Positions 1 through 285 of a DNA stretch of 285 nucleotides are shown piece after piece. Origin of the DNA: a phage. Position 1 is the first letter of the stretch; each line of letters opens with the position of its first letter. The position numbers and the translations under genes are program-made. Under the pieces are notes generated by a model. It saw nothing but the letters and a program-made list of their open reading frames with translations, had not been told where the DNA came from and made no database searches. Location of the stretch: the sequence record AF419416.1; one strand, given 5' to 3'.

Positions 1-18
1 ATGACTATGTCTAACATG
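1..18 (+). other. Cluster of three in-frame ATG codons (nt 1-3, 7-9, 16-18) at the 5' end of the ocr ORF; true initiation codon cannot be assigned because the upstream Shine-Dalgarno region lies outside the window
   Basis: Seen in sequence: atg act atg tct aac atg = M-T-M-S-N-M. In T7 the corresponding protein begins M-A-M-S-N-M (from memory), so the first ATG at nt 1 is the most likely start, but no RBS is visible to confirm it. Confidence 0.6.
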
Positions 19-285
19 ACTTACAACAACGTTTTCGACCACGCTTACGAAATGCTGAAAGAAAACATTCGTTATGATGACATCTGTGACACTGATGACC
101 TGCACGATGTTATTCACATGGCTGCCGATAATGCAGTTCCGCACTACTACGCTGACATCTTTAGCGTAATGGCAAGTGAGGGCATTGACCTTGAGTTCGA
201 AGACTCTGGTCTGATGCCTGACACCAAGGACGTAATCCGCATTCTGCAAGCGCGTATCTATGAGCAATTAACGATTGACCTCTGG
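1..285 (+). CDS. ocr: Ocr-like DNA-mimic anti-restriction protein (phage T7 gp0.3 family); partial, 3' end cut by the window edge (codons 1-95 of an expected ~117)
   Basis: Seen in sequence: frame 1 is open across all 95 codons from ATG at nt 1-3 to TGG at nt 283-285, while + frames 2 and 3 hit stops immediately (tga at 2-4, taa at 12-14) and all three reverse frames contain stops. Translation is highly acidic (20 D/E vs 5 K/R) and contains a single Trp as the last visible codon. From memory: the translation is near-identical to T7 Ocr ([95 protein letters not shown]...), including the [24 protein letters not shown] and [50 protein letters not shown] stretches. Codon usage (ctg, cgt, gac, ccg, ggt) fits an E. 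coli phage early gene. No stop codon in the window, so the 3' end is undefined. Confidence 0.9.

Follow-up and report, generated by a model that had tools for sequence, protein, structure and literature searches.

A copy of phage T7 gene 0.3 (ocr) that differs from the wild type only by G:C to A:T transitions

Which gene is carried by this stretch of phage DNA, called the window here and analysed over its whole length of 285 nucleotides, and where does this form of the gene come from? The original prediction had recognised in it a truncated open reading frame for an Ocr protein of the T7 gp0.3 type. Frame +1 is open from position 1 to 285, through all 95 codons and with no stop before the 3' edge; the other two frames of the + strand contain many stops, and only two further open reading frames, each of 31 amino acids, are found in the window. 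Frame 1 stayed open in just 77 of 20,000 shuffles of the window sequence. The 95-residue translation and residues 1-95 of the solved T7 Ocr (PDB 1S7Z, 2Y7C; E 2.3e-58) form a gapless alignment with 92 identical residues, which agrees with the identity of about 97% estimated in the original prediction. The Pfam family PF08684 ("DNA mimic ocr") is matched with 195.6 bits, against a curated cut-off of 25 bits (E 2e-58), over positions 1-93 of the 101 in the profile, and PHROG 2568 ("ocr-like anti-restriction") is matched with an E-value of 8e-48. At the DNA level, the best megablast match is to T7 bases 925-1209 (280/285 identical, 98.2%), which are the first 285 bases of a coding sequence annotated "gene 0.3, inhibits EcoB and EcoK host restriction". 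The database search proposed as a check thus returned T7 gp0.3/Ocr and its orthologues as best matches, and PF08684 was present in all of the 120 homologues listed. We conclude that the window is, almost beyond doubt, the 5' 80% (codons 1-95 of 117) of phage T7 gene 0.3. The gene is laid out as follows.

1..3, + strand: ATG start codon of gene 0.3, T7 bases 925-927, beginning at the first base of the window.
1..285, + strand: codons 1-95 of T7 gene 0.3 (ocr), open at the 3' end, assigned by protein, Pfam, PHROG and DNA matches.

The matched T7 segment belongs to the early region at the left genome end and follows closely on the host-polymerase promoters A1-A3 (498, 626 and 750), in keeping with the placement of the gene in the early, first-injected region. 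The translation contains 20 Asp and Glu residues and 5 Lys and Arg residues, giving a net charge of -15 over 95 residues, the value that had been estimated. Codons 96-117 of the T7 gene, which encode the acidic tail, fall beyond the 3' edge of the window, also as anticipated; the end of the reading frame is an effect of the window edge and not a biological truncation, and "truncated" is to be read in this sense only. The first base of the window is the A of the gene 0.3 start codon, and its last base completes codon 95 (285 = 95 x 3); its boundaries look anchored on a coding sequence or otherwise processed, rather than those of a random genomic slice. Deletions that begin inside gene 0.3 are common in laboratory-evolved T7 (PMC8923235; PMC6042481). 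No Rfam family was matched at E<=1 across the 285 bases, and sites for EcoKI, EcoBI, EcoR124I, E. coli BREX, Dam and Dcm are neither present in the window nor created or destroyed in it.

Gene and phage are both already known, and no new system is involved, Ocr being an established DNA mimic that counters restriction. In the literature, Ocr is described as the first protein made by T7 and as a very acidic, helical dimer, the surface of which imitates bent B-form DNA. It fills the groove in which type I restriction-modification enzymes bind DNA, such that the incoming phage DNA is neither cut nor methylated; the same mimicry blocks the BREX methyltransferase BrxX/PglX and mediates binding to the host RNA polymerase, and the PARIS abortive-infection system senses the protein. 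The activities that the original prediction attributed to Ocr are all on record: the inhibition of type I restriction-modification and of BREX through DNA mimicry, together with the triggering of PARIS (PMC9122126), the inhibition of BREX through BrxX (PMC7261183; PMC11842806), for which two BrxX monomers are sequestered per Ocr dimer and DNA is displaced (PMC11842806), and the binding of RNA polymerase, with inhibition of transcription (PMC7064336).

Two points that were absent from the original prediction concern the origin of the sequence, not the identity of the gene: its divergence (3%) is purely of the G:C to A:T type, and the allele is missing from the collections searched. The window departs from T7 at five of its 285 positions (1.75%), two of the changes being silent and three missense, and all five are G:C to A:T transitions.

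4, + strand: G4A, codon 2 GCT to ACT, A2T, at the N-terminal residue of the mature protein.
69, + strand: C69T, codon 23 ATC to ATT, silent (I23); the same base is found in some natural relatives.
85, + strand: C85T, codon 29 CGT to TGT, R29C, in the loop that joins helices 1 and 2 of the structural model, where a positive charge is lost.
110, + strand: C110T, codon 37 GCT to GTT, A37V, in helix 2 of the model.
243, + strand: C243T, codon 81 ATC to ATT, silent (I81), from the comparison with T7 and its relatives.

The direction of these changes depends on the assumption that T7 represents the ancestral state, a polarity that is backed only because the natural relatives agree with T7 at positions 4 and 85, as they mostly do at the other three sites. 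There are 134 possible G:C to A:T changes in the segment, of which 51 would be silent, 79 missense and 4 nonsense; the 2:3 ratio of silent to replacement changes in the window is close to this random expectation, for a small sample. A purine precedes the mutated G on its 5' side at four of the five sites: an A at window position 110 and a G at positions 4, 69 and 243, the three sites in a 5'-GG context, against a background of 15% (P = 0.026). The 5'-GG context hints, weakly, at an alkylating agent. In the control isolate K (see below), however, the same 5'-purine context is found at only one of five sites; the context is therefore not diagnostic. Four of the changes read as C to T and one as G to A on the strand presented, a difference that is not significant at n = 5, and we therefore make no claim for a transcription-coupled deaminase.

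We compared this pattern with the variation of gene 0.3 in nature. Sixteen natural relatives, found on viral contigs, are identical to the window at no more than 263 of the 285 positions, and the same 16 differ from T7 in this segment at 19-40 sites. Among the 104 distinct differences between these relatives and T7, 35% are of the G:C to A:T type, which gives a probability of 0.005 for five out of five, and silent changes outnumber replacements by about 2:1. In the phage collection, the matches listed drop from the T7 records straight to about 93% identity, and the listed records with 95-99% identity are all T7 laboratory records. The natural Ocr orthologues of Teseptimavirus and its relatives (for example in Yersinia phage phiA1122, Escherichia phage PHB19 and Salmonella phage SP6) have the Pfam family in common with the window, and the 120 listed homologues, which are 56-96% identical to the window protein, have the same invariant residues; they differ from it in that their DNA identity does not exceed 93% and their divergence is of mixed spectrum and mostly silent.

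A very different picture is offered by our controls, four T7 isolates with deposited sequences that are named K, K115, P and P82 (AY264775-AY264778; K is AY264775 and P is AY264777). Isolates K and P are probably mutagen-treated lines that go back to Bull et al. 2003, where a mutagen was reportedly combined with bottlenecks. In gene 0.3, K and K115 carry six changes (G37A, C66T, G121A, G220A, C225T and T345G) and P and P82 carry four (C5T, G252A, G331A and G343A), and 9 of these 10 are G:C to A:T. The gene in these isolates is thus like the window in having few changes (4-6 per 354 nt), nearly all of one type, in a mixture of missense and silent, with the frame intact. Over the first 12 kb, compared with the companion deposit AY264774, isolate K has 172 substitutions, 95% of them G:C to A:T (4.0 per 285 nt), and isolate P has 110, 91% of them G:C to A:T (2.6 per 285 nt); the corresponding figures against T7 are five out of five for the window and 35% for the natural relatives. 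At the density of K, five or more changes in 285 nt are expected with a probability of 0.38, and at that of P with a probability of 0.12. At about 10 substitutions per genome, the number fixed in T7 evolved without a mutagen (PMC8923235), this probability is 1.6e-8. The spectrum alone favours a mutagen-like model over the natural model by about 150-fold, and G:C to A:T changes are known to predominate after mutagenesis of T7 with nitrosoguanidine or hydroxylamine (PMC6042481). The window, at 1.75%, lies above a density of about 1% and has no excess of silent changes (2 silent, 3 missense), again in a small sample.

That the window is itself a piece of isolate K, K115, P or P82 was considered and rejected, since not one mutated site is common to the window and any of them; it would therefore represent an independent lineage and none of these records. 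As a separate observation, the BLAST alignments of K and P to AY264774 are broken into segments, at about 1734/1725 in K and about 2157/2147 in P, opposite AY264774 positions 1758-2569 and 2180-2989, respectively. Compared with AY264774, both isolates are thus missing about 0.8 kb of early DNA (genes 0.6-0.7), and gene 0.7 is unannotated in both.

The exact allele was sought in several collections. Megablast did not find it in the phage collection, in which the best match was wild-type T7, and found no match of any kind in the plasmid collection or in complete E. coli genomes. A 36-base probe spanning the R29C and A37V sites and 28-base probes for single sites gave no exact match in viral, metagenome and genome contigs. 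By exact look-up, the 95-residue fragment was absent from a collection of 15 billion proteins, both as such and with the T7 tail added; wild-type Ocr was found by the same look-up, which would miss a variant with additional changes in the tail.

We then considered the variant protein. An AF2 model of the 95 residues, built with 43 homologues and of moderate quality (mean pLDDT 77.5), has four helices, at residues 8-26, 31-45, 50-59 and 78-94. In the comparison with known structures, at E<=0.001, a Foldseek search of the PDB with this model of the 95 residues retrieved Ocr chains only, eight in number, with TM scores of 0.63-0.71 and an rmsd of about 4 A, a match that is partly carried by the sequence. 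The chains retrieved are of free Ocr and of its complexes with AriA, a type I methyltransferase, BrxX/PglX and RNA polymerase. Three further features of the gene bear on function; the numbering of residues in PMC3439906 omits the initiator Met, and the offset of one was confirmed from the Asp and Glu positions listed there, as located in our translation.

160..162, + strand: codon for F54, at the dimer interface, wild type; F54V escapes PARIS (PMC9122126).
178..276, + strand: codons 60-92, the acidic block (residues 59-91 in Met-less numbering), with a protein sequence equal to that of T7; crucial for Ocr activity (PMC3439906).
244..246, + strand: codon for L82, at the dimer interface, wild type; L82R weakens the triggering of PARIS (PMC10802264).

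Across 148 family members, the residues at positions 2, 29 and 37 are conserved to 72%, 82% and 83%, respectively. Thr2 is found in five of the 148 homologues, Cys29 in one (P0107) and Val37 in four, and Val37 also occurs in two of the close natural relatives (L004 and L005). None of the 18 invariant columns of the alignment is altered in the window, and F54, L82 and the neighbouring residues at the dimer interface are of wild-type sequence. R29C adds one unit of negative net charge relative to the wild type, and the loss of this positive charge would, if anything, strengthen DNA mimicry. In previous work, a form of Ocr in which six acidic residues between positions 25 and 35 were neutralised (Mut2; Met-less numbering) was still active, and Ocr99, from which the C-terminal tail was removed, had intact activity (PMC3439906). 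As the substituted positions are variable ones that lie outside the essential acidic block, in a region that tolerates mutation, as in Mut2, and as the protein is nearly identical to T7 Ocr, the variant probably retains the fold, dimerisation, DNA mimicry and anti-restriction activity of the wild type. Compared with wild-type T7 Ocr (gp0.3; OCR_BPT7; 1S7Z), it has the same gene, frame and ATG, the same acidic residues, the same invariant core and the same residues at the dimer interface, and is set apart by A2T, R29C, A37V and the two silent changes. Ocr99 (Studier/Rosenberg; Roberts et al. 2012) covers a nearly equal span, being four residues longer, and keeps its anti-restriction activity although it lacks the acidic tail; it differs from the window in being a deliberate truncation with a stop codon, whereas the reading frame of the window merely runs off the edge.

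Taken as a whole, the evidence is best explained if the window is a mutated copy of T7 gene 0.3, and we are highly confident that it is. As to how the copy was mutated, the origin that we consider most likely, and somewhat better than an even prospect, is an independent, heavily mutagenised laboratory lineage of T7, because all five changes are G:C to A:T and because their spectrum and density resemble those of K and P and are unlike those of the natural relatives. A laboratory T7 line would in this case have gathered its mutations under a mutagen that produces G:C to A:T changes, for which nitrosoguanidine, hydroxylamine or a cytosine deaminase are candidates, and would have been propagated on a host strain on which gene 0.3 is dispensable. 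This reading of the origin is drawn from five sites within 285 bases of one gene. A natural and very close sibling of T7, so far unsampled, in which the five differences are ordinary standing variation, would account for the presence of 69T, 110T and 243T, each in one or more natural relatives, and for the occurrence of every one of the amino acid replacements somewhere in the family. Spontaneous mutation, moreover, also leans toward G:C to A:T. Yet among the phage records listed, none falls between T7 itself and about 93% identity, the relatives known are 19-40 sites away, with 35% of G:C to A:T changes and a 2:1 silent excess (hence the P of 0.005 for five out of five), neither A2T nor R29C is found in a close relative, and the exact 28- and 36-base variant probes were unmatched; a sibling of this kind therefore seems unlikely to us. 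The changes might also be of non-biological origin, through errors of sequencing or assembly, through deamination of cytosines in the template (by heat or age) or through deliberate edits to the wild-type T7 sequence. C to T and G to A changes are equally the signature of a deaminated template, and heat increases G:C to A:T transitions in phage DNA (PMC8923235). The absence of the allele from the collections searched and the in-frame cut at the ATG itself, more suggestive of a processed record than of a raw contig, point in the same direction. Five errors in 285 bases (1.75%), however, far exceed the consensus error of assembled sequence, and real, deposited T7 genomes show an equal density and spectrum; that none of the five is a stop or a frameshift argues little, since only 4 of the 134 possible G:C to A:T changes are nonsense. 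On balance, we give little credit to an artefact.

Finally, the three replacements could have been selected, in an Ocr variant that was evolved or engineered to alter the recognition of partners (for example to escape PARIS) while anti-restriction was kept. Three of the five changes are replacements, and Ocr point mutants that behave in exactly this manner exist: F54V escapes PARIS and still blocks EcoKI (PMC9122126), and both F54V and L82R are mutants of the dimer interface (PMC10802264). In the window, however, F54 and L82 are wild type, and neither R29 nor A37 is mentioned in the papers on Ocr complexes that were searched. The 3:2 ratio of replacement to silent changes is that expected of unselected G:C to A:T mutation, and the presence of two silent changes of identical chemistry points to mutational load, not to design. 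We thus regard selection as very unlikely. The more specific proposal that A2T, R29C and A37V together form a selected allele with altered binding to, or sensing by, host defences (for example with weaker recognition by AriA), type I restriction-modification still being inhibited, strikes us as more doubtful still; such an allele would have taken a route other than that of F54V and L82R, the known escapes at the dimer interface.

Few anti-defence proteins are as thoroughly characterised as Ocr, and the window shows no difference of kind from it. The value for discovery is little, and the only information added is the mutational signature and the absence of the allele from the public collections searched; the practical value is one of triage, in that the window belongs under T7 gene 0.3 and its divergence of 3% is no ground for naming a new natural lineage of Ocr. 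A spectrum of transitions in one direction only is a cheap flag, in mixed collections, for phage sequence that is damaged or was mutagenised in the laboratory. Should the allele be real, the tolerance of the Ocr surface to mutation, large as it already is, would extend to three more positions.

Several other records of the family were noted during the comparison. The 0.3 protein of phiA1122 (P0006; 140 residues; locus L012, 906-1190) carries an extension of 30-odd non-acidic residues in place of the acidic tail, and PF27024 is recorded for it as a second Pfam domain; it looks as if the gene were fused to the one downstream or frameshifted into it. In a number of records (MZ375235/MZ375236, OL964748, MH382198, KP090454 and P0003, the last from PHB19), the Ocr gene is labelled "protein kinase" or "receptor binding protein kinase". 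Fusions created by 0.3-0.7 deletions are the probable explanation in some cases, plain mis-annotation in others. The cluster of wild-type Ocr includes a member of only 50 residues (P0145), present on three contigs of up to 39.7 kb and presumably the product of a gene 0.3 allele with a nonsense mutation or a deletion, carried by T7 stocks that were sequenced. Lastly, proteins with PF08684 that are 54-76% identical to the window protein (P0072, P0094, P0095 and P0115; loci L020-L033) are found in SP6-like, Proteus and other podoviruses of 43-46 kb, and the family is also represented on one viral contig of 141 kb (L029) and in one assembly of Salmonella enterica (P0089). Its occurrence in such phages indicates that the family extends well past the T7-like phages.
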